Positions 36,612 through 59,240 of a DNA stretch of 64,000 nucleotides are shown in pieces. Numbering within the stretch: position 1 is the stretch's first letter; every line of letters starts with the position of its first letter. Made by a program: the position numbers and the translations under genes. The stretch is from Sorangium sp. So ce388 (lineage in GTDB: Bacteria; Myxococcota_A; Polyangia; Polyangiales; Polyangiaceae). The DNA lies in assembly GCF_051474125.1 (NCBI RefSeq), contig NZ_CP150338.1, forward strand, positions 9,350,583 through 9,414,582, read 5' to 3'. The notes below the pieces were generated by a model. It made no database searches, was not told the DNA's origin, and saw only the letters and a program-made list of their open reading frames with translations.

Positions 36612-36673
36612 TTCGCCAGGAGCTGAACGCTCAGCGACCGGGAGGCACCAGACAGCGGCGAAGGAGGTACTGA

Positions 36674-43815: not shown

Positions 43816-46800
43816 ATGGCGCGCAACAGGAATTTTCTGCGTCCGCGATTCGAATTTGCCTCGCTGACCGCCCGCCGGACGGCGCCCCTGGTTCCCCTGC
43901 TTGCCTTGCTCGCCTCGCTCGCCGCGATCGGCTGCGCGGGTGGCTCGGAGGTCACGACCGTGGCGTCGTCCGGGGCCGGTGGCGCGGGCGGCAGCGGCGG
44001 CAGCGGCGGCGCGGGCGGCAGCGGCGCGGGCGGCGGCGGCGGCGCCGGGGGCGCGCCGAGCGGGAAGCTCGAGCTCTGCGTGCTCAACGACGGAGGGCCG
44101 ACGGACGCGTGCGCGAGCCCCGAGGTCCTCGACTTCGAGTCGGTGCCCCCGGGCAGGCAGCGGACACGCCTGTTCCGCGTCGAGAACCAGACCGCGGAGG
44201 AGGTCACGTTCACCGAGGCGAGCATCGCCAGCGCCGATTTCGCCGTCGAGGCGGTGCGCTACGAGCCGGATCCATCGAGCCCGGGCGCGTGGACGCGCGC
44301 CGTCGCGCCGCTGCCCGCCCAGAGCGAGCCGGGCGGCGCGCTCTACTTCGAGGTGACGTTCACCTCCGACGGCGCCGCGGGGCCGCTGCCCGCCGACCGG
44401 GTGATCGTGGAGGCCGACGTCGGCGACGCCCACGCGCCCGACGTCGTGGTGCCCGTCATCGGCCGCTCGAACAGCTGTCCCGTGGGGACCGGGGCCTGCG
44501 ACGACGAGCCGGACAACGGCTGTGAGACCGACCTCCTGACCAGCGCCGCCCACTGCGGCGCGTGCAGCCAGCTCTGCGTCTCGCCGAACGGGACCACCGG
44601 CTGCATCGACGGGATCTGCACGGTCTCCTCGTGCACCACCCCCCACGCCGACTGCGATGGGAACGCCACGAACGGCTGCGAGACCAACCTGCTGACCGAC
44701 GTGGAGGCGTGCGGCGCCTGCGGGACGAGCTGTCTCAAGGAGCACACCGAGTCGTTCTGCAACGGGGGCAACTGCAACATCATCGGCTGCGCCCCGGACC
44801 ACGCCGACTGCGACCTCGACCCGCTGACCGGCTGCGAGACCGACCTCCTGACCAGCGCGGCCCACTGCGGCGGCTGCAACGTCGCCTGCGACTTCGCCCA
44901 CGCGAGCGAGACGTGCGCGGCGGGCGAGTGCGCGTTCGGGGCGTGCGACGCCGGCTACGCCGACTGCGACGGCGACCTGACGAACGGCTGCGAGGCGAAC
45001 CTCGGGGCGAGCCTCGCCCATTGCGGCGCCTGCGGGGCCGCGTGCAGCTACCCGGGCGCGGCCGAGGCCTGCCTCGCGGGCACCTGTGTCATGGGCGCCT
45101 GCGACGCCGGCCACGCCAACTGCGACGGCGAGGCGGCGAACGGCTGCGAGGTCAACACGGGCACGAGCCTCGCCAACTGCGGCGGCTGCAACATCGCGTG
45201 CGCGCTCCCGAACGCCGCCGAGTCGTGCCTCGGCGGCACCTGCGTGCTCGGCGCCTGCGAGGCCGGCCACGCCAACTGCGACGGCGAGGCGGCGAACGGC
45301 TGCGAGGTCGACACGGGCACGAGCCTCGCCAACTGCGGCGCCTGCGGCGCCACGTGCGCCCTCGCGAACGCCTCCGAGTCGTGCGTCGGCGGCGCCTGCG
45401 TGCTCGGCGCCTGCGCCGCCGGGTACGCGAACTGCGACGACGAGGCGGCGAACGGCTGCGAGATCAACACGGGCACGAGCCTCGCCAACTGCGGCGCCTG
45501 CGGCGCCACGTGCGCCGTGGCGAACGCCGCGGAGTCGTGCCTCGCCGGGACGTGCGTGATGGGCGCGTGCGACCCGGGGTTCGCGAACTGCAACGCGAGC
45601 GCGCTCGACGGCTGCGAGGTCAACACGGCGAGCGATCCGGCGAACTGCGGCGGCTGCAACCTCGCGTGCGCCCTCGCGAACGCGTCCGAGACGTGCCTCG
45701 CCGGCACCTGCGTGCTCACCGGCTGCGAGGCCGGCTTCGCGAACTGCGACGACGCCCCGGCGAACGGGTGCGAGATCGACACGCGCACCAGCGTCGCGAA
45801 CTGCGGCGCCTGCGGCGCGGCGTGCGACCTCGCCAACGCCTCCGAGGCGTGCGTCTCCGGGACCTGCGACCTCGTCGCCTGCAACGCGGGGTTCGCGAGC
45901 TGCAACGGCGACGAGGCCGACGGGTGCGAGGTCAACACCGCGTCGGATCCGGCCAACTGCGGCGCCTGCGGCGCGGACTGCGCCGCGGCGATGCCGCACG
46001 CGACGGTCGGGTGCGGCGCCGGGGCGTGCACGTTCGGCGGTTGCCTGCCGGGCTTCTACAACCTCGACGGGTCGCTCGCGAACGGCTGCGAGTACGCGTG
46101 CACGTTCGTGAGCGACGAGGACCGGCCCGACGACGGCTTCGTCGACGCGAACTGCGACGGGATCGACGGCGACGCGCGCCTCGCGATCTTCGTGGCGGTG
46201 ACCGGGAGCGACGCCAACCCGGGCACGCAGCGCGCGCCGAAGGCCACGGTCGTGGGCGGCATCAACGAGGCGGTGCTGACCGGCAAGACGCAGGTCTACA
46301 TCTCGCAGGGGACGTACGTCGGCCGCGTCAGCCTCTCGAGCGGCGTGTCGCTCTACGGCGGCTACAACGCGGCGGCCGGCTGGGCGCGCTCGGCCGCCTC
46401 GTCCGCCGTCATCCGCTCGGGGAGCACGACCGGCGGCTACGTCGCGGCGGTCGAGGGCCAGAACATCAACACGCCCACGACGCTCGACCGGCTGACGATC
46501 CAGACCTCGGACGCGACGCTGGCCGGCGCGTCGAACTACGCGATGCGCTGCGTGAGCTGCACGGGCGTGACGCTGCGGAACAGCCGGCTGGAGGCCGGCG
46601 CGGCGGGGCCGGGCGCGGCGGGCAGCAACGGCGCGACCGGGGCGGCGGGCGGCAACGGCGCGACCGGCGGGGCGGGCAGCTGCGACGGCGCCGGCACGCG
46701 CCTCGGCGGCGCGGGCGGCACGTCGACGTGCGGGCGCACCGGCGGCAACGGCGGCAACGGCGGCCCCGAGGGGGAGAGGGCGGGCAGCGGCGGCTCCGTC

Positions 46801-47499
46801 GGGGTCGGCGGGACGCCTGGCGGCGTCGGGGGCTCACCCGGGAACGACACCTCTGACGCGCAGCCGGGCACCAACGGCCAGAACGGCGCCAGCGGGACGG
46901 CCGGGCTGAACGGGACCGGCGGCACCGGCGGGACGGTCAGCGGCAACGTCTGGCAGGGCAGATCGGGGAACGCCGGCGTCACGGGCCTCCCCGGGAACGG
47001 GGCCGGCGGCGGCGGCGGCGGCGGCGGGCAGGGCGGCTTCGCCGCGAACGACGGCGCCGGCAACGGCGGCGGCGGCGGCGGCGCCGGCGGCTGCGGCGGG
47101 AACGGCGCCGTCGGGGGCAGCGCGGGGGGCGGCTCGTTCGGCCTGTTCCTCGTGAACTCGACGGGGTTCCAGCTCGTCGCCAGCCAGGTCGCCAGCGGCG
47201 ACGGCGGCGCCGGCGGACGCGGCGGCAACGGCGGCAACGGCGGCGGCGGCGGCACCGGCGGCAATGGCGGCACCGTGTGCACCAGCGAGGTGGGCGCCGG
47301 CGGGACCGGCGGCCGCGGCGGGACCGGCGGCCGCGGCGGGCACGGCGGCGGCGGCGCGGGCGGCGTCTCGTACGGCGTCTACCGGGTCAGCACCACGATC
47401 TCGACCACGGGCAGCGTCGTCACGCACGGCGTCGGCGGCGCGGGCGGCACCTCCAGCGGCAACGCGGGCGCGGCGGGCGCCACGGGCAACGTGTTCTGA
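43816..47499 (+). CDS. Giant lipoprotein with about 16 copies of a ~40-aa Cys repeat (C.ADCDG...NGCE.N....S..NCGACG..C) and a C-terminal beta-helix/Gly-rich (GGNGGNGG) module.
   Basis: ATG at 43816. Lipobox AAIGC. A 120-nt coding repeat array spans 44480-46000. A VAVTGSDANPGTQRAPKAT beta-helix start motif is followed by GG.GG tracts like the Z1/Z2 C-termini. Confidence 0.7.
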   Translation: MARNRNFLRPRFEFASLTARRTAPLVPLLALLASLAAIGCAGGSEVTTVASSGAGGAGGSGGSGGAGGSGAGGGGGAGGAPSGKLELCVLNDGGPTDACASPEVLDFESVPPGRQRTRLFRVENQTAEEVTFTEASIASADFAVEAVRYEPDPSSPGAWTRAVAPLPAQSEPGGALYFEVTFTSDGAAGPLPADRVIVEADVGDAHAPDVVVPVIGRSNSCPVGTGACDDEPDNGCETDLLTSAAHCGACSQLCVSPNGTTGCIDGICTVSSCTTPHADCDGNATNGCETNLLTDVEACGACGTSCLKEHTESFCNGGNCNIIGCAPDHADCDLDPLTGCETDLLTSAAHCGGCNVACDFAHASETCAAGECAFGACDAGYADCDGDLTNGCEANLGASLAHCGACGAACSYPGAAEACLAGTCVMGACDAGHANCDGEAANGCEVNTGTSLANCGGCNIACALPNAAESCLGGTCVLGACEAGHANCDGEAANGCEVDTGTSLANCGACGATCALANASESCVGGACVLGACAAGYANCDDEAANGCEINTGTSLANCGACGATCAVANAAESCLAGTCVMGACDPGFANCNASALDGCEVNTASDPANCGGCNLACALANASETCLAGTCVLTGCEAGFANCDDAPANGCEIDTRTSVANCGACGAACDLANASEACVSGTCDLVACNAGFASCNGDEADGCEVNTASDPANCGACGADCAAAMPHATVGCGAGACTFGGCLPGFYNLDGSLANGCEYACTFVSDEDRPDDGFVDANCDGIDGDARLAIFVAVTGSDANPGTQRAPKATVVGGINEAVLTGKTQVYISQGTYVGRVSLSSGVSLYGGYNAAAGWARSAASSAVIRSGSTTGGYVAAVEGQNINTPTTLDRLTIQTSDATLAGASNYAMRCVSCTGVTLRNSRLEAGAAGPGAAGSNGATGAAGGNGATGGAGSCDGAGTRLGGAGGTSTCGRTGGNGGNGGPEGERAGSGGSVGVGGTPGGVGGSPGNDTSDAQPGTNGQNGASGTAGLNGTGGTGGTVSGNVWQGRSGNAGVTGLPGNGAGGGGGGGGQGGFAANDGAGNGGGGGGAGGCGGNGAVGGSAGGGSFGLFLVNSTGFQLVASQVASGDGGAGGRGGNGGNGGGGGTGGNGGTVCTSEVGAGGTGGRGGTGGRGGHGGGGAGGVSYGVYRVSTTISTTGSVVTHGVGGAGGTSSGNAGAAGATGNVF

Positions 47500-47620
47500 G
47501 CGGCCCGCGGGCGCGGCGAGCTCGCGCGGGGTGCGCGGGCTCGCCGGCGGCGGAGCTCACCGGGCGCCGGAGATCGCCGGCGCGGACGGAGCGCGCCGCG
47601 AGGAGGGCGCGGCGGTCAGG

Positions 47621-48484
47621 TCAATCGAGGAAGGCGGGGAACCTGGGGAACGCCGCGAGCGCGTCGGGCTCGTGCTGCACCACGAAGCGGGCGTGGGTGG
47701 CGTTCGCCAGCGCGAGGATGCGCTCCATCGAGCGGATGGACTCCTCGCGATCGGTGTTGAAGGGGGGCACGCGGTGGTTCGCGCAGTTCGCGTGGGTGTG
47801 GCAGAGGTCCCCTGAGATGACGATCGTCCCCGCGCGCCGGAGGCGGACGATGAGGCTCTGGTGCCCCGGCGTGTGCCCTGGCGACGGCACGATGCGCACC
47901 GTGCCGTCGCCGAAGACGTCCGCCTCGCCGTCGAGGAGCCGGAGCTTCGCGGTGCGGTAGGCCGAGATGAGCTCCGGCTCGACGGTCGGCGGCGCCGGCG
48001 TCGCGGTCGCCCACTCGAGCTCGCGCCGGCTCAGGATCCACGTCGACGTGGGGAACAGGTTGGCGTTGCCCGCGTGATCGACGTGCAGGTGCGAGAAGGC
48101 CACGTACTGCACGTCGGCGGGCTCGAGCTGCAGCGCGCGCAGCTGCTCCCGCAGCGGCGTGTCGACGCGGAACCGTATCCCCGTGCGAGCGTGCACGACA
48201 CCGCCCTTGGTCCGGGCGTTCACGTCGCTGATCCCGGTGTCCCACAGCAGGGTGCCGCCCGGGTGCCGGATGACATAGCACGCCGCGACCAGCTCCCTCG
48301 GGCCCCCCTCGTCCCCGAAGGCCGCCATGTCCGGGATCTCGGCGCGCCCGCAGTCGAGCGCGTACAGGCGGACCTCCGCGGGGGCCTCCGGCGCTGGATG
48401 CGGCGCGGGCGCGCTGCCGGCGCACGAGGGCAGGAGCACGAGCAGCGCGAGCAACAGCGCCGCCCACCATCGTTGAAGGGACAT
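47621..48484 (-). CDS. MBL-fold hydrolase resembling N-acyl-homoserine lactonase (AiiA-like), secreted or lipoprotein.
   Basis: Signal peptide/lipobox-like LLPSC. HLHVDHAGN (HxHxDH) zinc motif, plus downstream His/Asp ligands (SPGHTPGH, SGDLCH). Confidence 0.7.
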   Translation of the reverse strand: MSLQRWWAALLLALLVLLPSCAGSAPAPHPAPEAPAEVRLYALDCGRAEIPDMAAFGDEGGPRELVAACYVIRHPGGTLLWDTGISDVNARTKGGVVHARTGIRFRVDTPLREQLRALQLEPADVQYVAFSHLHVDHAGNANLFPTSTWILSRRELEWATATPAPPTVEPELISAYRTAKLRLLDGEADVFGDGTVRIVPSPGHTPGHQSLIVRLRRAGTIVISGDLCHTHANCANHRVPPFNTDREESIRSMERILALANATHARFVVQHEPDALAAFPRFPAFLD

Positions 48485-48615
48485 TCCATCTCCTCTCTCG
48501 CCGCCGCGCGAGCGGCGCCCCGAGCGTCGATGGCGCGGCGGATCTTCCGTAAAATCTGGCGAGCTGCGCGGCGGCCCGGGCGGGCCGCCGCGCGCTCTTC
48601 ACGGGCCGACCGGGG

Positions 48616-51564
48616 TCAGTTGACCTCGTTGTGGCACGTGGCGCTGCAGTCGTCGCCGCTCGAGGTGTTGCCGTCGTCGCACTCCTCGTACGGCGCCTGC
48701 CGCACGCCGTCGCCGCAGTGCGGGCCGAACACGCAGCCGGGCGCGCACTCGCCGTAGCCGCCGTCGTTCACGCGGTCGTCGCACTGCTCGGGCGGCGTCT
48801 GGGTCACCCCGTCGCCGCAGCGCGGGCCGATCACGCAGCCGGGCGCGCACTCGCCGTAGCCGCCGTCGTTCACGCCGTCGTCGCACTCCTCGCCGAGCTC
48901 GCGCTGCACGCTCCCGTCGCCGCAGACGGCGCCGATCCGGCAGCCGAGGCAGCCCATGCTGCCGTCGTTCACGCGGTCGTCGCACTCCTCGCCCCACTCC
49001 GCCTGGACGACCCCGTCGCCGCACTGCGCGGCGCTCTCGCACTCCGGGGTGCACCCGCCGTAGCGGCCGTCGTTCACCCCGTCGTCGCACGTCTCGGTCG
49101 GCGCCTGGACCACCGCGTCGCCGCACCGCGGCCCGATCAGGCACTCCGGCGAGCACCCGCCGTAGCGGCCGTCGTTCACCCCGTCGTCGCACTCCTCGCC
49201 GAACTGGCTGTCGATGTTCTCGTCGCCGCAGAACGGCGCCGCCGCGCAGCCCGGCGCGCACGCCCCCGAGCCGTAGCCGCCCAGGTTCGTGCCATCGTCG
49301 CAGATCTCGTACGGGGAGGTCGGGACGCCATCGCCGCAGTAGAGCCCCAGCGTGCAGCGCGTCGAGCACTTGCCGTAGCCCGAGCCGTTCTGGGTCCCGT
49401 CGTCGCACTGCTCGTCGGGCGTGACGATGCCGTCGCCGCACACGGGCTCGCAGACGGACGGGGCCGCGTTGAAGCCGCCGAGCGTCAGCTTGTAGCTGGA
49501 CGCCGTGGTGTGGCGCTCCGCCTGGAACACGACGACCTCGTAGACGCGCCCCTCCGTGAGGTCGAGATCATCCATGAACACGGTCCCGCGATCGTCCTCC
49601 ACGCCCGCGACCTCGCCGGTCCCCATCGGGGTGTGGATGCCGCCGAGATCGATGCGGAGCCGGTTGTTGATGAACACCCAGACGTCGTCGTCGCCGTAGA
49701 AGTCGAGCCGCTCGCCGCCGTGGTACTCGAACCAGTAGCGGACCTCGCTCGTGAAGTAGAAGTTGTGGTTGCCCGCCTCGGCCCAGTCGTTCCACGGATC
49801 GCGCGCCAGGCGGCTCGCCTCGCGCTGCGCCGCCGGCACCGACGTGTCCTGCCACCCCTTGCCGTCGAGCGGGAAGAACCCGTGATCCTCGAACACGAAC
49901 ACGTCCGTGGCCCCGGCGCGCGTGAGCGTGAGCAGGTCCACGACCGTCTTCGACAGGGTCGAGTCGTTGTACCAGCGGTTGAAATCCGTCGCGTTCGTGA
50001 GGAAGGCGTCCGCCGGCGGGGACGCGGCGAGCCGCGGCTTGCCGTCGGCGCCGAGCGTCGCCTGCACGAGCCCCCTCAGAAGGACGTTCGGGGGGTCGCG
50101 GTCAGGCTCGAAGTTCGGCGTGTTCTCCTTGAAGTCGCGGAGCACGATCGGCACCTGGAGCTCGTCGCCGAGGACCGCCTCGTTCGTGCAGCTGTAGCCC
50201 GGCTCGACCGCGCACGCGGACGAGCAGCCGTCCCCGTCCGTCGTGTTGCCGTCGTCGCAGGCCTCGCCGCCGAGGCGCAGCCCGTCGCCGCAGGCGGAGG
50301 TGCAGCCCGTGTCGCCGCAGTCCGGCTCGACCTGGCAGAACGGCGTGCAGCCGTCGCCCATGTTCGCGTTGCCGTCGTCGCACGGCTCGGAGCCCTCCCG
50401 CTCGCCGTCGTTGCAGACCGTGTCGCGGCAGATGTAGCCGCCGGCCGCGGGCTCGCACACGAGGCCCGGCTCCCACTTGCACGCCGCGTCGCACCCGTCG
50501 CTGTCCCTCGTGTTGCCGTCGTCGCACTGCTCCCTGGCGACGACCCTCCCGTCGCCGCAGACCGCCGTGCAGCGGCTCCCCGCGCGCGCGCAGTCGAACC
50601 CGGCCTCGACCTCGCAGGTGGCGGAGCAGCCGTCGCCGGAGACCCTGTTGCGGTCGTCGCACCCCTCGCCCACGCCGATCTGACCGTCGCCGCAGACGAC
50701 CGTGAACGTGCAGTGGATGCCGTCCGGGCACACCCAGCCCGCCTCGACGAGGCAGGCCGGCGAGCAGCCGTCGCCCGACTCCGTGTTCCCGTCGTCGCAC
50801 CGCTCGGTCGGCCGCAGCTTGCCGTCGCCGCAGCGCTCGACCGGCCGGCACGGCTCCCCCGGGACAGGGCAGGTGATGTTGCCGGGGTCCTCGAGGGCGC
50901 ACACGTCGGAGCAGCCGTCGCCGGAGGCCGTGTTGCCGTCGTCGCAGCCCTCGCCGGCCGAGACCCGCGCGTCGCCGCACGTGTGGAGCCGGTAGCACGG
51001 CACGCCCGGCCGCGGGCAGATCCAGTCGCCCGGCTCGCGCTGGCAGCGGTCGTCGCAGCCGTCGCCCGCGGCCGTGTTGCCGTCCTCGCACGTCTCGCCG
51101 GGCTCCACCGCGCCGTTGCCGCAGACGATCGTCGTGTGGCACCCGTCTTCCGGATCGCAGGCGCAGTACGGCTCGATCTTGCAGGCGCCGGAACAGCAGT
51201 CGCCGGGGAGGCTGTTCCCGTCGTCGCACTCCTCGCCCTCGCGGTTGATCTCGCCGTCGCCGCACGCCGGCTCGACGGCGTCGCACTCCGGCGGAGCGTC
51301 GGGCGAGTCGCACGGATCGCCCCCGCCGCTCCCCGAGGTGGGGCCGACGGTGATGAACCCGCCGAGGCCGCCGGAGCTGTCGTCGCCGCCGGAGCCCGTG
51401 ACGCCGCCCGCGCCCCCCGCCCCGCCCACGCCGCTCCCCGTACCGCCATTGCCGCCATTGCCGCCGTCGCCGCCGTCGTCGCCGCCGCAGGCGACGAGCG
51501 GACCGGCGAGCAGGACGAGCACCACGGAAGAAAGAGTCTTTGCCAAGCGCATTGATGCCACCAT
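48616..51564 (-). CDS. Giant lipoprotein with Myxococcus-type cysteine-rich repeats (CGDG....E.CDDGN) flanking a fibro-slime/PA14-like domain.
   Basis: Start at 51564 (MVASMRLAK...LLAGPLVAC lipobox). Repeated CGDG(x)6-8GE.CDDGN units. Central block GHNFYFTSEVRYWFEYHGGERLDFYGDDDVWVFINNRL. The ORF-track extension to 52086 is an artefact. Confidence 0.7.
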   Translation of the reverse strand: MVASMRLAKTLSSVVLVLLAGPLVACGGDDGGDGGNGGNGGTGSGVGGAGGAGGVTGSGGDDSSGGLGGFITVGPTSGSGGGDPCDSPDAPPECDAVEPACGDGEINREGEECDDGNSLPGDCCSGACKIEPYCACDPEDGCHTTIVCGNGAVEPGETCEDGNTAAGDGCDDRCQREPGDWICPRPGVPCYRLHTCGDARVSAGEGCDDGNTASGDGCSDVCALEDPGNITCPVPGEPCRPVERCGDGKLRPTERCDDGNTESGDGCSPACLVEAGWVCPDGIHCTFTVVCGDGQIGVGEGCDDRNRVSGDGCSATCEVEAGFDCARAGSRCTAVCGDGRVVAREQCDDGNTRDSDGCDAACKWEPGLVCEPAAGGYICRDTVCNDGEREGSEPCDDGNANMGDGCTPFCQVEPDCGDTGCTSACGDGLRLGGEACDDGNTTDGDGCSSACAVEPGYSCTNEAVLGDELQVPIVLRDFKENTPNFEPDRDPPNVLLRGLVQATLGADGKPRLAASPPADAFLTNATDFNRWYNDSTLSKTVVDLLTLTRAGATDVFVFEDHGFFPLDGKGWQDTSVPAAQREASRLARDPWNDWAEAGNHNFYFTSEVRYWFEYHGGERLDFYGDDDVWVFINNRLRIDLGGIHTPMGTGEVAGVEDDRGTVFMDDLDLTEGRVYEVVVFQAERHTTASSYKLTLGGFNAAPSVCEPVCGDGIVTPDEQCDDGTQNGSGYGKCSTRCTLGLYCGDGVPTSPYEICDDGTNLGGYGSGACAPGCAAAPFCGDENIDSQFGEECDDGVNDGRYGGCSPECLIGPRCGDAVVQAPTETCDDGVNDGRYGGCTPECESAAQCGDGVVQAEWGEECDDRVNDGSMGCLGCRIGAVCGDGSVQRELGEECDDGVNDGGYGECAPGCVIGPRCGDGVTQTPPEQCDDRVNDGGYGECAPGCVFGPHCGDGVRQAPYEECDDGNTSSGDDCSATCHNEVN

Positions 51565-52000
51565 CCCAACCCGCTTCAGAAGAGCGTCACGTTGTCCAAG
51601 GAATGCCGCGGAGCGCCTCGGCCGACGAGATGCGCCTCCGGGGATGGCGTGGGCGCGCGTCGCACAGGGCTCCCGCGCACGGTCGCGTGTAGGTAAGCGC
51701 CGTCCCCGGGGTGATCGCAACGCAAACACCGCGATGTTGCAAGCGGATTTCACGCCGTGGCGGGTTTGCGACGCCCCGCCCGCCGAGCGGTCACGGAATC
51801 CGCGCGGTACGCGGGCCTGCGCGCTGGCCAGCGGGCGGGCGGCGCGCGGGCTTGACATCTGCCTCACCCCCCGCCGCCCGCGCCATCTCGTCCCCCGGCC
51901 CTGGCGGAACGGCTGTACCCTGGCCGCGGGGAAGCCGGGCCCGCGCTGGTTCGGCGCGGGGGCGGCCTCCAGCGGACTACGCGGACCACACGGAGCAGGC

Positions 52001-55000
52001 ATGGTGTCGACAGGGGCCCTGGATGGAGCGGCCCGGACGGCGGGGGCGCCGCCCCCGAAGCCGGCGGAGACGCTGGACGGCGGCAATTACGAGGTCATCC
52101 GGCGGCGGCTCGTCGAGCGCGCCGAGGAGCTCGGCCGCCGCGCCGAGGCGCTCAACGCGCGGCGGAAGCAGGTGTTCGGCGGCACCGACCTCGCGCTCCT
52201 CGAGAACGCGCGCGTCAGGACCGAGAACAACTGCCTGCCGCGCGACATCGTGAGCATCCGGGGCAAGCTGCTCGTCGGCTACCTCGTGTTCATGGGGCTG
52301 AAGGAGGTGAACGTCGGCGACGTCTTCAGCCTCCACCGCTTCGCCAAGGCGGACGGCGCCTTCGACCTGTCGCCCGTCCCGCTCGACGAGGGCGACGCGT
52401 TCCTCGGCGACCCCGGGTTCCTCAAGGAGTTCAAGGACCTCCACCGCTACGTCAAGGAGCCCCGGCTGCTCCAGCTCCGGCGCAGCGACACGCGGCTGCT
52501 CGCCATCTTCCAGGTCGGCGCGACCGAGCGCGACGTGAAGGTGTTCCGCTGGAGCATCGACGCGACAGGGCGCATCCGGTACCTCGACGCGCGCGGCGAG
52601 GAGGACAACGTCCGGCCGCGCCACCACGACTTCGCCTGGACGCAGTCCACGCGCGACGACCACGTGCAGGGCAAGCACCCGCACGTCTCGATCCTCGGCG
52701 AGATCTTCGTCGAGACGGTCGGCGGCGACCTCACCGTCAAGGTCGAGAACAACACGACGACGGGGCTCGGCATCTACCGCGAGCCGGTCGACGACGCGGG
52801 CCAGGCGCTCGACGACGCCGACATCCAGTACGCCCGCCTCGGGCCGCTCATCCTGCTCAAGATCAAGCCGTTCCGCGAGCCTTCGTACCGCTACCTCGTC
52901 TACAACGGCCGCACCCGCAAGGTCGTGCGCATCGACGCGATCGGCCTCGCGTGCCTGAGCCTCCCCGAGGACCAGGGCATCGTCTTCCCGAACGGCTACT
53001 ACCTCGTCACCGGCGAGACGAAGCGGTTCGAGGGCAGCACCGAGAGCCTCGTCTTCGAGCGGGTCATCCGCTCGCCCAACGGGGAGGACGTGCTCTACGT
53101 GTTCCACCAGGTCGTGGAGGGGCGCTACGTGCTCTTCCCGTACAACCTGATCCGCAAGGAGATCGCGACCCCGATCCAGTGCCACGGGTACAGCCTCTTC
53201 GACGACGGCAAGATGGTGATCTTCCGGGCGTCGGGCGACGAGGCGACCCGCGTCCACCCGATGCAGATCTGGCAGACGCCGTTCATGACCGCGGAGTTCG
53301 CGGCGTCGGCGCCGACCGACGGCTCGTACCTCGCCAAGGTGGGCAACGCCGACCTCGTGCGCGGCATCTCCGACGCGCTCAGCCTGCGGCGCGCGGCGAT
53401 GGACGGGTCGCCGACCCGCCAGACCTTCGAGGACCTCATCCGGACCGCCGGGCGGATGACTGACGCTTTCTACTGGCTCGGCCACGCCGAGGCGGGCGAC
53501 CTCCTGTCGACGGTGACCGAGCTCCGGGCCGTCTCCGAGAGCATCGTCGACGAGTTCGAGAAGGTCGAGGCCATCAAGGCGCGCGCGGCGAGCGCGCTCG
53601 CCGAGACCGAGGCCGCGCAGCGGCAGCTGCTCGGCGGGGTGCGGCCGGAGGACGCGGCGAGCGTCGACGCCTTCCTGACGGCGCTGACCGCCCTGCGGCG
53701 GCAGCGCGGGCACCTCATCACGCTCCGCGAGCTCAAGTACATGGACCTCGGCCGCGTCGACGCGCTCGAGGCCGAGGTCGTCGCGCGGGCCGACGAGGTG
53801 AGCCGCGCGTGCGTGACGTTCCTGCTCGGCGAGCAGGCGTTCCGCCCCCTGGCCGACCGGCTCGCGGGGCTCATCGCGAAGATCGAGGCGGTCGCGAAGT
53901 CGCCCGAGCTCGCGCCGTTCGCCGCCGACCTCGACGCCGTGAACGAGGGGCTCTCGGTGCTCGCCGACATCATCGCGAGCCTCAAGGTCGACGACCCCAC
54001 GGCGCGGACCCGGATCCTGGAGGGGATCAGCGAGGTCTACGCGCAGCTCAACCGCGCGCGCGCGACCCTCACCGCCCGCGGCAAGGACCTCCGGGGCGCC
54101 GAGGGGCGCGCGGAGTTCGGCGCGCAGTTCAAGGTGTTCGGCCAGAGCGTCTCGAGCGCGCTCGCCGTCTGCGACTCGCCCGAGCGCTGCGACCGCGAGC
54201 TCTCGAAGCTGCTCGTCCAGCTCGAGGAGCTCGAGGGCAAGTTCGGCGAGTTCGACGAGTTCCTCGGCGAGCTCGCGGCGAAGCGCGAGGAGGTCAACGA
54301 CGCGATCGCGGCGCGGCGGCAGGCGCTGCTCGACGAGCGGCAGCGGCGCGTCTCGAACCTCGTCGCCGCGGCGGATCGGATCGTCCAGGGCGTGGCGCGG
54401 CGGGCGCGCTCGTTCGCGGGCGCGGACGAGCTCAACACCTACTTCGCGTCCGACCCCATGGTCGCCAAGGTCCGCGACCTCGCGGCGGAGCTCCACGCGC
54501 TGGGCGACAGCGTGAAGGGGGACGAGGTCGAGGCGCGGCTCAAGTCGGCGCGGCAGGACGCGCTCCGGGCGCTGCGCGACCGCGAGGACCTGTTCGAGGG
54601 CGGCGGCGACGTCATCAAGCTCGGCCGCCACCGCTTCAACGTGAGCACGCAGCCGCTGGAGCTCACGCTGGTCCCGCGCGGCGAGGGGCTCGCGCTGCAC
54701 CTCACCGGGACCGACTTCTTCGAGCCGATCGAGGACCCGGCGCTCGCGAGCGCGCGCGACCTCTGGGGCCAGGAGCTCGCGAGCGAGACGCCGGCCGTGT
54801 ACCGGGGCGAGTTCCTCGCGGGCTCGATGCTCGCCGACGCCGAGGCGGGGCGGGGCGGGCTCTCGATCGAGAGGCTGCGCGAGGCGGCGCTCGGCCCGGG
54901 CGGGCTGCTCGCCGCGGTGCGCGCGTATGCGGAGGGCCGGCACGACGAGGGGTACGAGCGCGGCGTCCACGACGCGGACGCGGCGCTCATCCTGGAGAAG

Positions 55001-57622
55001 CTGCTCGCGCTGCGGGTCACGGCGGGGCTGCTCCGCTTCGCGAGCGGGCCGCGGGCCCTCGCCTGCCTGTACTGGGCGGGGCTCGAGCCGCGCGCCCGGG
55101 ATCTCGCGCACCGGCGGGCGCGGAGCCTGGGCCGGCTCGCGGCGCAGCTCGGCGAGAGCGAGGCGCGGGCGGCGCTCGCGGCCGAGCTCGCGGAGGGCGT
55201 GGCGGCGACCGCGGCGGCGCACCGGCTGGGGGCGGACGTGAGCAGCGCGGCGGACGTGCGCGTCGCGGCGCGGTACCTCGTGGAGGAGCTCGCGGCCGAG
55301 CGCCTCCGGTTCGTGACGAGCGACGCGGCGCTCGCGCTGCGCGACGCGCTGCTGTCCCACCTCGATCTGGCGGGGGGCCGCGCCGCGTTCGAGGAGGACC
55401 TCCGGCAGCTCGAGAAGCACCCGGCGGAGCGGCTCCAGCTCGCGCTCGCGTGGCTCACGGGCTTCGTCGCAAGAGATCCGTCGCGCGCCCCCCTGAGCCA
55501 CCTCGCGCTCGAGGCGGCGGTCGTCATCGTGACGGAGCGGCAGCTGGAGCGGGAGCCCAGCGGGGCGGTGACCGAGGCCCGCGTCGAGGGGCTGCTCGGC
55601 CAGCACCCGCGCATCCGCGACCGCGCGCTCGCGCTCCGGCTTGACGAATTCCTGAGCAGGATCGAGGACTTCCTGCACGAGCGGGCGCCGCGCTACCGCG
55701 CCTACAGGAAGGTGCGGAGCGAGATCGCGGAGCGCGAGCGGCGGCGGCTGCGGCTCGAGGAGTTCGCGCCGCGGGTGCTCACGTCGTTCGTGCGCAACCG
55801 GCTGATCGACGAGGTGTACCTGCCGCTCGTCGGCGCGAACCTGGCGAAGCAGCTCGGCGCCGCGGGCGACGTGAAGCGCACCGACCTGATGGGCATGCTG
55901 CTGCTCATCTCGCCGCCGGGCTACGGCAAGACGACGCTGATGGAGTACGTCGCGAGCAAGCTCGGGCTCGTGTTCATGAAGGTGAACGGGCCGTCGCTCG
56001 GCCACGAGGTGACGTCGCTCGACCCGGCCGAGGCCCCGAACGCGACGGCGCGCCAGGAGGTCGAGAAGATCAACCTGGCGTTCGAGATGGGCAACAACGT
56101 GATGCTGTACCTCGACGACATCCAGCACACGAACACGGAGCTCCTGCAGAAGTTCATCTCGCTCTGCGACGGGCAGCGCCGGATCGAGGGCGTGTGGCGC
56201 GGCCGGACGCGGACGTATGACCTGCGCGGCAAGAAGTTCTGCGTGGTGATGGCGGGCAACCCGTACACGGAGTCGGGGGCGCGGTTCCAGATCCCCGACA
56301 TGCTGTCGAACCGGGCCGACACGTACAACCTCGGCGACATCCTCGACGGCAAGGAGGAGCTCTTCGCGCTGAGCTACCTGGAGAACGCGCTCACGTCGAA
56401 CCCGACGCTCGCGCCGCTCTCGGGGCGCGCGCCGGGCGACACGCACCGGCTCATCCGGATGGCGCAGGGCGAGGCGGTGGCCGCGACGGAGCTCGAGCAC
56501 GCCTACTCCGCGGCCGAGGTCGCGGAGATCGTCGCCGTGTTCGAGCGGCTCTTCCAGGTGCAGCGGGTGCTGCTCTCGGTGAACCTCGAGTACATCCGCA
56601 GCGCGTCGCAGGACGACGCCTTCCGGACGGAGCCGCCGTTCAAGCTGCAGGGCAGCTACCGGAACATGAACAAGCTGGCCGAGAAGGTCGTGGCGGCGCA
56701 CACGCCCGCGGAGGTCGACCGGCTCATCGACGATCACTACGTGAGCGAGTCGCAGACGCTGACGACCGGCGCCGAGCAGAACCTGCTCAAGCTCGGCGAG
56801 CTGCGCGGCCGGACGACGCCCGAGCAGCAGGCGCGGTGGGACGAGATCAAGAAGGGCTTCGTGCGCATCAAGCGCATGGGCGGCAAGGAGGACGACCCGG
56901 TGGTGCGCGTGACCGGCACGCTCTCGATGCTCGGCGAGCAGCTCGAGGGCATCCGCGGGGCGATCGGGAAGGCGGCCGCGGTGGCGCAGGCGGGCGACGC
57001 GCGGGCGCGGGAGATGAAGCAGTGGCTCGCGCCCGAGATCGAGCGGCTCTCCGGGGCGCTCAAGGGGGTGGCGCAGCCCCGGGTGGAGGTGAAGGTCGAG
57101 ACCGATCGGTCGGTGTCGGAGTTCGTGGGCCACCACCTGTCGCTGGTGGAGCGGCTCGTGGCGCCGCTCGCGAAGGCGACGACGCAGAGCGCGTTCGGCA
57201 TCCGGGCGATCGAGGCGCAGGTCTCGGAGCTCGGGCAGGCGCTCCGGTCGCTCGACGAGCGGGTCCGCGCGGCGGCGCGCCCGCAGAGCCAGCCGCCGCC
57301 GCCGCGCTTCGAGGCGCGGCTCGGGGCGGAGTCGCCGGCGAACTTCTACCGGACCGCGCCCGCGGCCGACGTGGTGGAGCACGGCGGCATCTTCGTTCCG
57401 ACGTTCCGGCAGCCGCCGGCGCGGGGGACGACGGTCGCGCTCAAGCTCCCTTTCGCGGAGGGCGGCGAGATCGACGCCGTGGCGGTGGTCGAGTGGACGC
57501 GCGACGCGCAGGACGAGGGTCCGGCTGGGTTCGGGGCGCGCTTCGTGCGGCTCTCGGGCGAGCAGCGGGAGCTCGTGGAGGGGTTCGTACGGCAGCGGGA
57601 GCCGATGCTGCTCCGCGCCTGA
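52001..57622 (+). CDS. Very large (1873 aa) AAA-type ATPase with a C-terminal PilZ (c-di-GMP-binding-type) domain.
   Basis: Walker A ISPPGYGKTTL. Walker B VMLYLDDIQHTN. C-terminal PRFEAR (RxxxR) ...DVVEHGGIF ... GFGARFVRLSGEQRELVEGFV fits PilZ. The ATG at 52001 follows GGAGCAGG. Long helical regions lie between the domains. Confidence 0.75.
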   Translation: MVSTGALDGAARTAGAPPPKPAETLDGGNYEVIRRRLVERAEELGRRAEALNARRKQVFGGTDLALLENARVRTENNCLPRDIVSIRGKLLVGYLVFMGLKEVNVGDVFSLHRFAKADGAFDLSPVPLDEGDAFLGDPGFLKEFKDLHRYVKEPRLLQLRRSDTRLLAIFQVGATERDVKVFRWSIDATGRIRYLDARGEEDNVRPRHHDFAWTQSTRDDHVQGKHPHVSILGEIFVETVGGDLTVKVENNTTTGLGIYREPVDDAGQALDDADIQYARLGPLILLKIKPFREPSYRYLVYNGRTRKVVRIDAIGLACLSLPEDQGIVFPNGYYLVTGETKRFEGSTESLVFERVIRSPNGEDVLYVFHQVVEGRYVLFPYNLIRKEIATPIQCHGYSLFDDGKMVIFRASGDEATRVHPMQIWQTPFMTAEFAASAPTDGSYLAKVGNADLVRGISDALSLRRAAMDGSPTRQTFEDLIRTAGRMTDAFYWLGHAEAGDLLSTVTELRAVSESIVDEFEKVEAIKARAASALAETEAAQRQLLGGVRPEDAASVDAFLTALTALRRQRGHLITLRELKYMDLGRVDALEAEVVARADEVSRACVTFLLGEQAFRPLADRLAGLIAKIEAVAKSPELAPFAADLDAVNEGLSVLADIIASLKVDDPTARTRILEGISEVYAQLNRARATLTARGKDLRGAEGRAEFGAQFKVFGQSVSSALAVCDSPERCDRELSKLLVQLEELEGKFGEFDEFLGELAAKREEVNDAIAARRQALLDERQRRVSNLVAAADRIVQGVARRARSFAGADELNTYFASDPMVAKVRDLAAELHALGDSVKGDEVEARLKSARQDALRALRDREDLFEGGGDVIKLGRHRFNVSTQPLELTLVPRGEGLALHLTGTDFFEPIEDPALASARDLWGQELASETPAVYRGEFLAGSMLADAEAGRGGLSIERLREAALGPGGLLAAVRAYAEGRHDEGYERGVHDADAALILEKLLALRVTAGLLRFASGPRALACLYWAGLEPRARDLAHRRARSLGRLAAQLGESEARAALAAELAEGVAATAAAHRLGADVSSAADVRVAARYLVEELAAERLRFVTSDAALALRDALLSHLDLAGGRAAFEEDLRQLEKHPAERLQLALAWLTGFVARDPSRAPLSHLALEAAVVIVTERQLEREPSGAVTEARVEGLLGQHPRIRDRALALRLDEFLSRIEDFLHERAPRYRAYRKVRSEIAERERRRLRLEEFAPRVLTSFVRNRLIDEVYLPLVGANLAKQLGAAGDVKRTDLMGMLLLISPPGYGKTTLMEYVASKLGLVFMKVNGPSLGHEVTSLDPAEAPNATARQEVEKINLAFEMGNNVMLYLDDIQHTNTELLQKFISLCDGQRRIEGVWRGRTRTYDLRGKKFCVVMAGNPYTESGARFQIPDMLSNRADTYNLGDILDGKEELFALSYLENALTSNPTLAPLSGRAPGDTHRLIRMAQGEAVAATELEHAYSAAEVAEIVAVFERLFQVQRVLLSVNLEYIRSASQDDAFRTEPPFKLQGSYRNMNKLAEKVVAAHTPAEVDRLIDDHYVSESQTLTTGAEQNLLKLGELRGRTTPEQQARWDEIKKGFVRIKRMGGKEDDPVVRVTGTLSMLGEQLEGIRGAIGKAAAVAQAGDARAREMKQWLAPEIERLSGALKGVAQPRVEVKVETDRSVSEFVGHHLSLVERLVAPLAKATTQSAFGIRAIEAQVSELGQALRSLDERVRAAARPQSQPPPPRFEARLGAESPANFYRTAPAADVVEHGGIFVPTFRQPPARGTTVALKLPFAEGGEIDAVAVVEWTRDAQDEGPAGFGARFVRLSGEQRELVEGFVRQREPMLLRA

Positions 57623-58031
57623 TCGCGCGCCGCCGGGTGGCGACGCGCGTGCGTCAGGCTGGCAACGTTCACACGCACACGGCGTCCGGCGCACGCGAGC
57701 GCCCGGCTGCCGCCGCTCGCGCTTCCTCGCCTGTTTACGCTCGCGTGCGCTCGTCTGTCCGCGCTCGCGTGCGCTCGCCTGCTGGCTCGGCGACGCACGC
57801 AGAAGCGGAGGTGCTCCACGCGATCACAGCACCCGAGCTCAGCCACCCGCACGCCGCTCGTTCCGCACACGAACGCGCACACAAGCGAGCAGACGCACGG
57901 GACAGTTGCCTGCATGAGGGGTGGAGGCGCGTCCCTCGTGCGTGTTATCACCATGCCGCGACGCGTATCGTCAGCGATGGCCTGGACTCGAAGCCCGCGC
58001 TCCGGCGCCGGGTATGCAGGAGCTTCGGCGC

Positions 58032-59240
58032 ATGAAGATGATGACCCTCGGACCCTTTGATGGGAACGCGTGGCTGCTCGGGCGGAAGGTGGAGCGGACG
58101 GTCGCCGAGTGGAAGGAGCCGGCGCGGCTCGCGATCGTGGCCATGCCGAGCGGGACGAAGCACGAGGAGTACCTCGCCGCGATCGAGGACGCGACGGGCA
58201 TCCCGGTGGTCGGGGCCACGACCGGCGGGGCGTCGTTCACGGAGCGCGGCTTCAGCAAGAGCGGGGTGACGTGCGCGTTCCTCGGCGGCGCGAACGTCGA
58301 CGTGGCGTGCGCGGCGGCGCGCGAGCTGCGCGCGGATCACGTGAAGAGCATCCGGGCGGCGCTGAGCGACATGGACGAGGCGGTCTCGAGCAGCGGGCCG
58401 CGCAGCGGGTCGCCGAGCTCGATCCTGGTGCTGGCCGACGCGTTCGCGTGCGACGGCGACGAGCTCGTCGCGGCGCTCCGCCAGGGTGTGCCGCCGCACA
58501 CGCGCGTCTTCGGCGGGACGGCGGGCGACGGCTGGACGTTCGAGGGGGCGCGGGTGTTCCTGGGCCGCAAGGCGCTGACGGACGCGGCGATCCTCGTGCG
58601 GCTGACGCACCGGCACCGGATGAACATCGACGTGGTGCACGGGTTCCGCGCGGCCGAGGGCGGGCGGGATTTCACGATCACCGACATCGAGCGGAACGTG
58701 CTGAAGACGCTCGACGGGCAGCCGGCGGCGCGGGTGTACGAGGAGGAGCTCTCGCGGCTCGGGTTCAGGTCGAGCGGCGAGGGGCTGCTCCAGACGATGG
58801 CGAAGCACGCGCTCGGCGCGAAGACGCCGTTCGGCGAGGCGCTGAAGATCAGGTCGCCGATCGCGGTCCGGGGGGACGGGGCGGTGGTGCTGACCGGGGG
58901 GCTCTCGCGGGGGCAGGTCGTCCGGGTGGTGAACGCGGGGACCGACGCGCTGCTGCAGGCGGCGAAGAGCCTGTCGACGAAGGTGCTCGGGCCGCTGCCG
59001 GCGGTGTCGGGGTCGCTGGTGTTCGACTGTGCGTCGCGGTACCGGCTGCTGGGCGAGCGGTACCGCGAGGAGGTGCGCGCGTTCCTGTCGCCTCACGGGG
59101 GGTCGCACCCGATGTTCGGGATGGCCTGTTACGGGCAGATCGCGAAGTTCGGGGGGAGCGTCGAGGGGTTCCACAACACGAGCTCGGTCATGGTGGCGTG
59201 GGGGGAGTCGGACCATGGGACGGGGCCGGCGAGCGGGTGA
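58032..59240 (+). CDS. FIST-domain (FIST_N + FIST_C) sensory protein.
   Basis: Two-lobed architecture with Gly-rich turns typical of FIST (…VLADAFACDGDELV…, …GSLVFDCASRY…). It lies directly downstream of the AAA-PilZ gene. Confidence 0.65.
   Translation: MKMMTLGPFDGNAWLLGRKVERTVAEWKEPARLAIVAMPSGTKHEEYLAAIEDATGIPVVGATTGGASFTERGFSKSGVTCAFLGGANVDVACAAARELRADHVKSIRAALSDMDEAVSSSGPRSGSPSSILVLADAFACDGDELVAALRQGVPPHTRVFGGTAGDGWTFEGARVFLGRKALTDAAILVRLTHRHRMNIDVVHGFRAAEGGRDFTITDIERNVLKTLDGQPAARVYEEELSRLGFRSSGEGLLQTMAKHALGAKTPFGEALKIRSPIAVRGDGAVVLTGGLSRGQVVRVVNAGTDALLQAAKSLSTKVLGPLPAVSGSLVFDCASRYRLLGERYREEVRAFLSPHGGSHPMFGMACYGQIAKFGGSVEGFHNTSSVMVAWGESDHGTGPASG

Follow-up and report, generated by a model that had tools for sequence, protein, structure and literature searches.

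The molecular function of bacterial flotillins is still debated. In Escherichia coli, the flotillin YqiK is encoded with the NfeD protein YqiJ in an operon. MoxR-type ATPases, with which we group the AAA modules of midasin and dynein as the nearest known systems of the ATPase described here, usually pair with a VWA protein. HflK/C–FtsH provides a precedent for the combination of an SPFH cage with an AAA+ machine (PMC13220708). Myxococcus xanthus encodes 24 PilZ proteins; c-di-GMP binding by two of them, PixA and PixB, was abolished with mutants of the RxxxR motif, and PixB binds the ligand despite the missing Ser of motif 2 (PMC8316039). XAC1133 and PA2960 are adaptors that bridge PilB and FimX and show no c-di-GMP binding (10.1101/2020.02.11.943704; PMC8389850), XAC1133 contacting the N-terminal domain of the PilB ATPase and the EAL domain of FimX (PMC8389850); XC1028 and XAC1133 PilZ are reported as non-binders of c-di-GMP (10.1101/2020.02.11.943704).

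The window, a stretch of 64,000 nucleotides from Sorangium sp. So ce388, carries a gene for a giant AAA+ ATPase (Table 1). The gene runs as a single unbroken frame from an ATG, with GGAG 5 nt upstream, to its stop codon, and the stop-to-stop ORF around it (50996–57622) has a GC3 of 0.97, so the single giant polypeptide of the original prediction stands. No transmembrane segment was found in the ATPase, for which the Kyte-Doolittle 19-residue window peaks at 1.38. The full-length architecture is also present in the complete genomes of So ce56, So ce1128 (whose protein is 97% identical), So ce176 and Chondromyces crocatus, as well as in many independent MAGs, and because it is shared in this way the fusion is not an assembly artefact, a concern raised at the outset.

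Table 1. Coordinates of the ATPase gene, its domains and the neighbouring features in the window
Feature	Position	Strand	Evidence
YqiJ/NfeD-like membrane protein, first gene of the ancestral three-gene module	29927..30784	+	tblastn, hhalign
YqiK/flotillin-like SPFH protein, second gene in the ancestral module (homology begins at 30960; approximate, not a fixed start codon)	30960..33164	+	tblastn, hhalign
Inserted block of unrelated genes between the flotillin and ATPase genes	33368..51564	.	Pfam
DUF4215/PA14 'fibro-slime' lipoprotein	48616..51564	-	Pfam
Intergenic region (436 bp) that separates the divergent fibro-slime and ATPase genes	51565..52000	.	
ATPase gene, soluble 1873-aa AAA+ protein, DUF3686/DUF7902 family (NCBI name 'DNA repair ATPase')	52001..57622	+	intact ORF, Pfam
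DUF3686 domain (residues 43-491)	52127..53473	+	PF12458, E 9.6e-203, profile positions 1-448/448
DUF7902 domain (residues 612-695)	53834..54085	+	PF25472, E 2.9e-27
Single AAA+ module (~residues 1290-1560)	55868..56680	+	
Helical linker, low model confidence (~residues 1640-1765), ends in QPPPP hinge	56918..57295	+	pLDDT 40-72
PilZ-fold C-terminal domain (residues 1769-1873) and stop codon, degenerate c-di-GMP motifs	57305..57622	+	AF2, Foldseek, profiles
Stand-alone FIST_N + FIST_C protein, neighbour outside the ATPase system	58029..59240	+	Pfam

The architecture had not been recognised as a described family; its core, however, is catalogued as Pfam PF12458 + PF25472 + AAA, with more than 6,645 homologues; clustering at 50% identity gave 418 clusters with E<1e-30. 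Members are usually 1600–1900 aa long, and those aligned or listed show full-length collinear homology to the ATPase at 31–97% identity. A literature search on the family found no paper. The protein is a Sorangium member of a large, catalogued and unstudied DUF3686–DUF7902–AAA family.

A profile search found no PDB relative of the DUF3686 domain, and the Ala/Leu/Glu-rich stretch around DUF7902 (approximately residues 500–1200) is probably helical, judging by its composition only. Both ATPase motifs quoted in the original prediction were found (ISPPGYGKTTL at residues 1302–1312, LYLDDIQHTN at 1369–1378), as was the C-terminal end ...FGARFVRLSGEQRELVEGFV. The AAA+ module, matched by Pfam AAA/AAA_5 at residues 1300–1423, contains a Walker A motif SPPGYGKTT (1304–1312) and a Walker B motif LYLDD (1369–1373) in which Asp replaces the usual Glu, followed by GNP (1419–1421), NR (1437–1438) and QGSYR (1550–1554); SPPGYGKTT, DDIQH, GNP, NR and QGSYR are invariant in a 51-sequence family alignment and all present in the query. 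Given the invariant Asp-Asp in place of Asp-Glu, the protein may hydrolyse ATP slowly and act as a switch instead of remodelling processively. In structure, the module is closest to MoxR-clade proteins, the AAA clade being assigned by fold. RuvB is also among the best Foldseek and P-loop sequence matches, which agrees with the NCBI/Pfam name and would place the protein in DNA repair or DNA translocation; we regard this function as highly improbable, and a widespread, very large and unstudied AAA+ family bears a name that has no evident basis.

To analyze the genomic context of the ATPase, 65 loci with at least 2.5 kb of upstream sequence were compared. In 52 of them the ATPase gene is preceded, at a distance of less than 400 bp, by the end of a flotillin-like gene, and in 47 of these 52 the NfeD-like gene is there as well; 10 of the 13 exceptions are Sorangium. 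Among four distant members sampled (33–37% identical to the query), three have the YqiJ–YqiK–ATPase triad and one is missing the flotillin neighbour, and in Myxococcus xanthus the three genes are still adjacent. The gene order is conserved in Myxococcota and Acidobacteriota as well as in more distant metagenomic members, and the three-gene module is the ancestral and still prevalent context of the ATPase family. This strongly conserved, cross-phylum order is new here, and a literature search found no paper mentioning an ATPase–flotillin–NfeD gene order.

In the window, both partner genes were located by tblastn with the operon genes of Chondromyces and Myxococcus, on the same strand as the ATPase gene and 19 kb upstream of it. 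The flotillin-like gene is 59–69% identical to the immediate upstream neighbour of the ATPase gene in other genera; in hhalign its profile matches E. coli YqiK with a probability of 99.8% (E 1e-28), and Band_7 matches 8 of 23 orthologues. For the NfeD-like gene, the orthologue profile matches E. coli YqiJ with a probability of 90% (E 1.7e-6), and YqiJ_N gives a weak match in 3 of 19 orthologues. The inserted block encodes two Kelch proteins, an SDR, a Cu-monooxygenase-like protein, a metallo-beta-lactamase and the fibro-slime lipoprotein. In other genera the flotillin and ATPase genes abut, whereas in So ce56 they are 4.9 kb apart; in Sorangium the module order is broken by insertions of 4–19 kb. 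The divergent fibro-slime gene, named as the upstream neighbour in the original prediction, is an insertion specific to Sorangium that parts the ATPase gene from the ancestral partners of its operon. The ATPase gene, now on its own, presumably has a promoter in the intergenic region, where a scan found no sigma-70-like or terminator-like sites, a result that says little at 72% GC. With the ATPase 19 kb from the flotillin gene and requiring a promoter of its own, functional coupling could therefore have lapsed.

As a compact module with a large uncharacterised NTPase, the three genes could instead serve in phage defence or abortive infection, with the SPFH scaffold in the membrane and the ATPase as sensors or executors of defence, and weak PADLOC matches to IetA and mad8 as well as a STAND NTPase-kinase elsewhere in the window would fit such a role. 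However, the PADLOC matches are limited to about 30 P-loop residues, with E-values of 1e-3 or worse, and neither a nuclease nor another effector domain was detected. The ATPase gene also lies in conserved Sorangium chromosomal synteny, and its spread over myxobacterial genera is broad and taxon-consistent rather than patchy or island-like, which makes a defence role very unlikely.

Beyond residue 1640, most members of the DUF3686–DUF7902–AAA family extend for only another 10–70 residues, and in others there is an unrelated tail of 100–220 residues. The place taken by the linker in the query is variable across the family, and the C-terminus is a variable slot. In the query the slot is occupied by a PilZ fold, as originally proposed. 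AF2 modelled the tail as a six-stranded beta-barrel with a C-terminal helix (pLDDT 91), and the best six Foldseek matches are all PilZ structures at a probability of 1.00, with XAC1133 and XC1028 on top. An hmmsearch of the tail profile against the PDB likewise returned XC1028/XAC1133 (3dsg, 4f48) at E 8e-8; the PDB title of the XC1028 entry mentions 'trivial c-di-GMP binding activity'. Canonical c-di-GMP binders were matched by Foldseek at E 0.1–0.4, and hhalign of the tail profile against E. coli YcgR found no similarity. With the PilZ model PF07238, the whole protein stayed below the gathering score of 22.5 bits (18.6 bits, residues 1795–1864), whereas the tail scanned alone exceeded it (23.8 bits); among orthologous tails, 24 of 36 have a match at E<=0.01. 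The PilZ-related model TIGR02266 matches the tail at E 3e-13 and all 36 tails, always under its cutoff. The PilZ and TIGR02266 matches span profile positions 25–95 and 33–101, the C-terminal two-thirds, and miss the RxxxR part.

The PilZ tail was detected in 6 of 150 representative clusters and in 20 of 80 species loci, all of Polyangiales type except for one MAG each labelled Myxococcales and Myxococcaceae. It is absent from 5 of 10 Sorangium loci, and So0157-2 and So ce513 show a clean deletion of the tail module. The tail is thus limited to Polyangiales and has been secondarily deleted in some Sorangium genomes.

The original prediction described this tail as a c-di-GMP-receptor domain with RxxxR and (D/N)xSxxG-like motifs. 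The literal strings exist (R-F-E-A-R at 1769–1773, D-V-V-E-H-G at 1790–1795), but as conserved c-di-GMP motifs they fail. Across 113 tails, R1769 is conserved in 104, the residue at position 1773 is Arg in 8, and position 1765, four before R1769, is G, P, T, A, S or V and never basic. The motif-2 Asp is retained in 104 and the Gly in 111 of the 113 tails, whereas the Ser position is occupied by V (89), L (10), I (5), F (2), E (2) or A (1) and never by Ser. AF2 also predicted RFEARL as strand beta-1, with no free N-terminal loop. Neither a conserved RxxxR before beta-1 nor (D/N)xSxxG was found in the tail, and its nearest relatives XC1028/XAC1133 are non-binders, which makes a role of the tail as a canonical c-di-GMP receptor unlikely.

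A working receptor could still exist in non-canonical form, with c-di-GMP directly gating the giant ATPase through R1769, D1790 and G1795. The PilZ fold is genuine, TIGR02266, a model of the myxobacterial PilZ-type domain, fits all tails, D1790 and G1795 are conserved at the DxSxxG spacing with R1769 directly ahead of beta-1, and the PixB precedent, among the numerous PilZ proteins of myxobacteria, shows binding without the motif-2 Ser (PMC8316039). We nevertheless doubt such direct gating: the second Arg is rare and nothing basic lies four positions ahead of R1769, while it is the RxxxR motif whose mutation was used to abolish PixA and PixB binding (PMC8316039) and which the HMM matches miss. 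In addition, the nearest relatives are proven non-binders, canonical binders align poorly (Foldseek E ~0.1) or, for YcgR, not at all, and half of the Sorangium genomes dispense with the tail.

The FIST protein predicted downstream of the ATPase was recovered with Pfam (FIST_N E 3e-28, FIST_C E 1e-17). Its conserved start is ATG 58029 and not GTG 57921, and the protein reaches only 53.6 bits with the NosP model, whose cutoff is 450. The adjacency of the two genes on the same strand, which holds in 10 of 10 Sorangium loci, would fit a sensory pair in which FIST supplies the input and the ATPase the output. These loci, however, include the five without the PilZ tail, so that adjacency is independent of the tail; no FIST gene lies within 6 kb of the ATPase gene in the other 70 of 80 loci, among them every PilZ-bearing locus outside Sorangium, such as those of Chondromyces, Labilithrix and other Polyangiaceae. 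The 406-nt gap between the genes is indel-rich near the ATPase stop, whereas the FIST start codon and a leader of about 130 nt are conserved. The FIST gene is an independent neighbour, its adjacency is within-genus synteny, and a sensory pair is scarcely credible. The picture of a c-di-GMP receptor, a giant ATPase and a FIST sensor is weakened accordingly: the tail is a degenerate, dispensable domain of a single lineage, and FIST is a bystander.

Taken together, we favor, at a probability of roughly 0.55, a soluble MoxR/midasin-type remodelling ATPase that would act on or with flotillin assemblies and carry a lineage-specific PilZ-fold adaptor tail that is not a direct c-di-GMP sensor. Gene order is the single line of evidence that points to the putative ATPase–flotillin link. 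Like other MoxR-type AAA+ proteins, the ATPase would oligomerise. It would spend ATP on remodelling, loading or disassembling membrane assemblies of flotillin and NfeD, or their clients, and the large N-terminal DUF3686 region would probably be the module for docking or substrate binding. In Polyangiales, the PilZ-fold tail on its flexible tether could serve as a protein–protein adaptor or autoregulatory module, as XAC1133 PilZ does on the PilB ATPase, and any second-messenger input would therefore be indirect, via a partner protein. The tailed variant would add a further case in which an ATPase has recruited a PilZ fold, probably as an adaptor.

A further-reaching proposal, which we put forward tentatively as a possibility, is that DUF3686 AAA+ proteins are dedicated ATP-driven partners of YqiK-type flotillin/NfeD assemblies, loading clients into or extracting them from flotillin cages or microdomains, or taking the assemblies apart, in analogy to Vps4 on ESCRT-III and FtsH inside HflK/C; the Polyangiales tail would then connect to another partner or to non-canonical c-di-GMP input. 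If true, bacterial flotillins would gain their first energy-consuming cofactor. A conserved MoxR-type ATPase partner would offer a concrete, testable handle on flotillin mechanism, for example in the tractable Myxococcus xanthus.

Compared with known systems, MoxR proteins such as CbbQ, NorQ and RavA are about 250–500 aa long and have the VWA partners CbbO, NorD and ViaA, whereas the ATPase described here has 1873 aa, a 1250-residue N-terminal region and a DD instead of a DE Walker B, and has no VWA partner in its operon: no VWA domain was found in the scanned window neighbours or among the genes listed around four distant homologues. With canonical PilZ proteins (YcgR, Alg44, MotI/DgrA, PixA, PixB) the tail shares the beta-barrel and C-terminal helix, the fit to PF07238 and TIGR02266, and the Asp and Gly of motif 2; it differs in the unconserved RxxxR, the missing Ser, much weaker Foldseek matches and the failure of YcgR to align. 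Nearest to it are the Xanthomonas/Pseudomonas PilZ proteins proper, XAC1133, XC1028 and PA2960 (Foldseek E 7e-4, ranks 1–6), which likewise are without RxxxR and the D/S of motif 2 and have the ...GG-h-F-V-x-T strand in common with it. These are stand-alone proteins of about 110 aa with 26–29% identity to the tail that function in type IV pilus control, whereas the tail is fused to the C-terminus of an unrelated 1765-residue ATPase outside any pilus context; a Pfam scan of neighbouring genes found no pil gene and no EAL or GGDEF.

In relation to HflK/C–FtsH, the ATPase is without a transmembrane segment and a protease domain, and its kinship with FtsH is limited to the AAA fold. The two conserved upstream genes are homologues of E. 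coli yqiJK, where the third, ATPase gene of the module is absent. With the DUF3686/DUF7902 AAA family itself (PF12458 + PF25472 + PF00004), the protein shares the invariant Walker and sensor residues, a similar size and the flotillin and NfeD partner genes, whereas it adds the C-terminal PilZ-fold domain found only in Polyangiales and its gene is split from the partner genes by inserted DNA.

In the window, the ATPase gene encodes a protein of the DUF3686–DUF7902–AAA family, whose domains are listed with the surrounding features in the table. Its reading frame runs uninterrupted from 51074 to the stop codon, and the ATG at its start carries a GGAG 5 nt upstream; the DNA is GC-rich (~0.72 across the window), and GC3 reaches 0.97 over the stop-to-stop ORF enclosing the gene. 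The closest protein is that of Sorangium sp. So ce1128 (97% identity), and synteny around the gene is conserved with ten Sorangium genomes. The original prediction described a giant AAA ATPase with a C-terminal PilZ fold, followed by a FIST gene; every motif it quoted is present and the Pfam domains agree, and this observation is therefore confirmed. The HMM search recovered AAA/AAA_5, with PilZ lying below threshold in the whole protein and above it (23.8 bits vs 22.5) when the tail, i.e., the PilZ-fold end, was scanned alone. A frameshift or assembly artefact was ruled out, because the same full-length fusion recurs in several complete genomes and many independent MAGs.

Features of the ATPase locus and its surroundings (window nucleotide positions unless residues of the ATPase are indicated)
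Feature	Position	Strand	Evidence or remark
Ser/Thr protein kinase–STAND NTPase fusion	2155–5136	−	nSTAND1, E 4e-109
Tandemly duplicated segment	21000–28500		~3.65–3.8 kb
Identical stretches of the duplicates	23078–23377; 26732–27031
Internal arrays of the duplicates	24141–24494; 27803–28264		43-nt period
YqiJ/NfeD-like gene	29927–30784	+ (as ATPase)	19 kb upstream
YqiK/flotillin-like gene	~30960–33164	+ (as ATPase)	19 kb upstream
Kelch-repeat proteins	33368–36478; 36674–39787		~1037 aa
ATPase gene	52001–57622	+	1873 aa
DUF3686	residues 43–491		Pfam, E 1e-202
DUF7902	residues 612–695		Pfam
AAA/AAA_5	residues 1300–1423		Pfam
Walker B (hhhhDD)	56102–56119 (residues 1368–1373)
PilZ-fold tail	residues 1769–1873
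PilZ, sub-threshold in whole ATPase	residues 1795–1864		Pfam
FIST_N + FIST_C gene	58029–59240	+	Pfam; next gene after ATPase

By its core, the ATPase is a member of a very large family, called 'DNA repair ATPase' by NCBI: a search at E ≤ 1e-10 gives over 6,645 matching proteins, and the AAA-containing C-terminal third matches 418 clusters (50% identity, E < 1e-30). The proposal that no described family was involved is thus not sustained, the core being catalogued under that name with its domains precomputed by Pfam. Since the full architecture is also in databases already (one JGI entry is labelled PilZ), the PilZ-tailed ATPase is a lineage-specific variant of a catalogued core family and not a new class. 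A literature search for DUF3686, PF12458, DUF7902, PF25472 or 'DNA repair ATPase' found no paper, and nothing in the sequence speaks for a DNA-repair role. The protein is soluble and contains no transmembrane segment. Two database homologues deserve mention: record BNCN01000023.1, titled 'Comamonas sp. KCTC 72670', holds a 61% identical protein matching over the same span (residues 15–1692) as the Myxococcus genes, and 74% identity to the Sorangium ATPase, together with the PilZ tail, is shown by a protein labelled 'Candidatus Nanopelagicales'; in both cases, the label seems to stem from misassignment or contamination.

Clustering of the flanking ORFs of 80 species-level homologous loci, ten of them from Sorangium, revealed two same-strand genes of ~280 aa and ~750 aa directly 5' of the ATPase gene. 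The ~750-aa product shows a Band_7/SPFH match in 8 of 23 orthologues, and its profile aligns with the flotillin-family protein YqiK of E. coli (hhalign probability 99.8%, E 1e-28) across the membrane anchor, the SPFH domain and the coiled coil. The ~280-aa product has weak YqiJ_N matches and aligns with E. coli YqiJ (probability 90%, E 1.7e-6), which is the NfeD-like partner of YqiK in that organism. Neither profile matched anything in the PDB, and the window's own copies, which gave no Pfam match, were identified via their orthologues and hhalign to YqiK and YqiJ. In 52 of the 65 loci whose upstream sequence is long enough, fewer than 400 bp separate the end of the flotillin-like gene from the ATPase ORF; Sorangium accounts for ten of the 13 others, and in Myxococcus xanthus and Corallococcus the triad is intact. 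Among four distant family members from metagenomes (33–37% identical to the query ATPase), three retain the NfeD-like–flotillin-like–ATPase triad, with the flotillin-like neighbour recognized at hhalign probabilities of 100% and 99.9% in two and by a precomputed Band_7 match in the third. The gene order is conserved across phyla; it is not universal in the family, because in GCA_031454105.1 the ATPase gene follows a PRiA4_ORF3-like gene and has neither flotillin nor NfeD neighbours. Our searches found no paper on the triad, on a 'DNA repair ATPase' with flotillin or on flotillin/SPFH–AAA in Myxococcus, and an AAA partner of this kind is unmentioned in papers on prokaryotic SPFH operons and Psp/flotillin neighbourhoods.

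In Sorangium, the ancestral operon is pulled apart by insertions, since the gap between the partners and the ATPase gene is filled with unrelated genes; in the window, these encode, according to Pfam, two Kelch proteins, an SDR, a Cu-monooxygenase-like protein, a metallo-beta-lactamase and a fibro-slime lipoprotein. The two Kelch-repeat proteins are adjacent paralogues, and the corresponding gap in So ce56, only 4.9 kb long, cannot hold both. Just 5' of the YqiJ/NfeD-like gene lies the tandem duplication, with direct repeats 82–100% identical, a lower GC content (0.60–0.65) and an internal array in each duplicate. The kinase–STAND fusion elsewhere in the window is unrelated to the ATPase.

The family alignment comprised 51 members with 31–73% identity, all of which share Walker A SPPGYGKTT, Walker B DDIQH, GNP, NR and QGSYR. 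The Walker B motif of AAA+ proteins usually ends in Asp-Glu; here Asp-Asp is present in 51/51 sequences, followed by the invariant Gln-His, which may point to slow, switch-like or regulated ATP hydrolysis. An AlphaFold2 model of residues 1240–1873 (pLDDT 83) consists of a confident AAA module with a MoxR-type fold, a low-confidence helical linker (~residues 1640–1765) and a confident terminal domain. PDB sequence searches with the whole ATPase and with the 51-sequence profile returned generic P-loop matches alone, 30–70 residues long (RuvB, NVL, Rix7), and were uninformative on the N-terminal 1250 residues. PADLOC gave weak P-loop matches alone and no indication of a defence system.

Homology reaches the tail in 20 of the 80 loci. 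It is found in Sorangium, Chondromyces, Labilithrix, Byssovorax and Polyangiaceae/Polyangiales MAGs, and also in one MAG labelled Myxococcales and one labelled Myxococcaceae; the match ends at residues 1650–1800 in the remaining loci, among them those of Myxococcus, Corallococcus, Archangium, Nannocystaceae, Haliangium and Acidobacteriota. The tail occurs in 6 of the best 150 representative clusters, and the family is variable beyond ~residue 1640, where most members stop within 10–70 residues and some carry unrelated tails of 100–220 residues. At least one non-Polyangiales member has a different, globular-looking extension of ~190 residues (…RFEIRREDGPLVELNARGTQLSFAVDLG…) where PilZ would sit. 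Five of the ten Sorangium genomes, So0157-2 and So ce513 among them, no longer encode the tail. DNA alignment with window positions 57293–57700 revealed a clean deletion that starts directly after the QPPP linker codons and precisely covers the PilZ module plus some of the spacer; the breakpoint lies in the Pro-rich linker, and the shortened proteins end ...PPPERPGEGDDxRGRGGA. Given the Polyangiales-restricted occurrence and the clean loss in half of the Sorangium genomes, the tail is a dispensable, lineage-specific accessory.

This flexibly tethered tail is a genuine PilZ-fold domain. The last 125 residues were modelled as a β-barrel followed by a helix (pLDDT 91), and in a set of 36 diverse orthologous tails, 24 matched PF07238 and all 36 matched TIGR02266; these matches span the C-terminal two-thirds of the PilZ models and miss the RxxxR-bearing part. 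Its ligand motifs are degenerate. Across 113 tails, R1769 is conserved in 104, and no basic residue ever stands four positions ahead of it. At the second Arg position of 'RFEAR' (R1773), Arg occurs in only 8 tails, all of them from close Sorangium relatives. In motif 2, D1790 and G1795 are kept in 104 and 111 tails, respectively; the Ser position is occupied by Val, Leu or Ile in 104 and by Ser in none. 'RFEARL' was modelled within strand β1 and not as a free N-terminal arm. Against the whole PDB, the tail profile matched Xanthomonas PilZ proteins alone (3dsg, 4f48, 3cnr, 7lkq; E 8e-8 to 9e-7), which also rank first in the fold search, where the canonical binders Alg44 and MotI reach E ~0.1–0.4 at best. 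The profile gave no hhalign alignment with E. coli YcgR, and hence no mapping of motif positions. According to the literature, c-di-GMP is not bound by XAC1133, XCC1028 or PA2960, and the Xanthomonas PilZ protein acts as an adaptor linking the ATPase PilB to the EAL domain of FimX (10.1101/2020.02.11.943704; PMC8389850). The tail had been taken for a c-di-GMP receptor; with both motifs eroded and non-binders as nearest relatives, that designation is not supported, and direct binding is unlikely. It is still conceivable because PixB of M. xanthus binds c-di-GMP without the motif-2 Ser, but PixB, unlike the tail, keeps RxxxR (PMC8316039). A fusion of PilZ with an AAA domain or ATPase is unmentioned in the main text of PilZ surveys (10.1101/814665; 10.1101/2020.02.11.943704) and in the M. 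xanthus PilZ inventory (PMC8316039).

The FIST gene follows the ATPase gene in the ten Sorangium loci alone, five of them tail-less, and no FIST lies within 6 kb of the ATPase gene at any non-Sorangium locus of the 80. Its conserved start is 406 nt past the ATPase stop (ATGAAGATGATGACC at 58029), and the ~130 nt before it (57900–58028), including TCCCTCGTGCGTGTTATCACC, are highly conserved in four Sorangium strains; the DNA between the ATPase stop and this leader is indel-rich. The conserved stretch probably serves FIST itself as a promoter or leader, and the gene looks like an independent transcription unit; the sensory input that had been suggested for it is not supported. Neither intergenic region yielded a hit in promoter and terminator scans, which the GC content renders uninformative. 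In other genera, the PilZ-bearing loci are followed by varying genes (Ser/Thr kinases, metallo-beta-lactamase, ATE), none being conserved and none a c-di-GMP enzyme, and the upstream fibro-slime gene (DUF4215 repeats and PA14 by Pfam) is Sorangium-only among the 80 loci. Direct c-di-GMP control and FIST input are the weakest parts of the original claim.

The interest of the locus is raised by the strongly conserved, unreported flotillin–NfeD–ATPase triad, which renders bacterial flotillin function testable. We hypothesize that the ATPase forms a ring, as other MoxR-type AAA+ proteins do, and spends ATP acting on flotillin/NfeD assemblies or their clients, with its 1250 N-terminal residues, which comprise DUF3686, DUF7902 and a helical stretch, as a putative docking or substrate module. 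The Polyangiales tail would most likely serve protein–protein contact or autoregulation, comparable with the XAC1133 PilZ protein on PilB. We give this overall reading, an ATPase acting on flotillin/NfeD assemblies with an adaptor-like tail, a probability of about 0.55, the flotillin link being drawn from gene order only. MoxR proteins are remodellers or maturases of protein complexes. The pairing of an SPFH scaffold with an AAA+ machine has a precedent in HflK/C–FtsH (PMC13220708).
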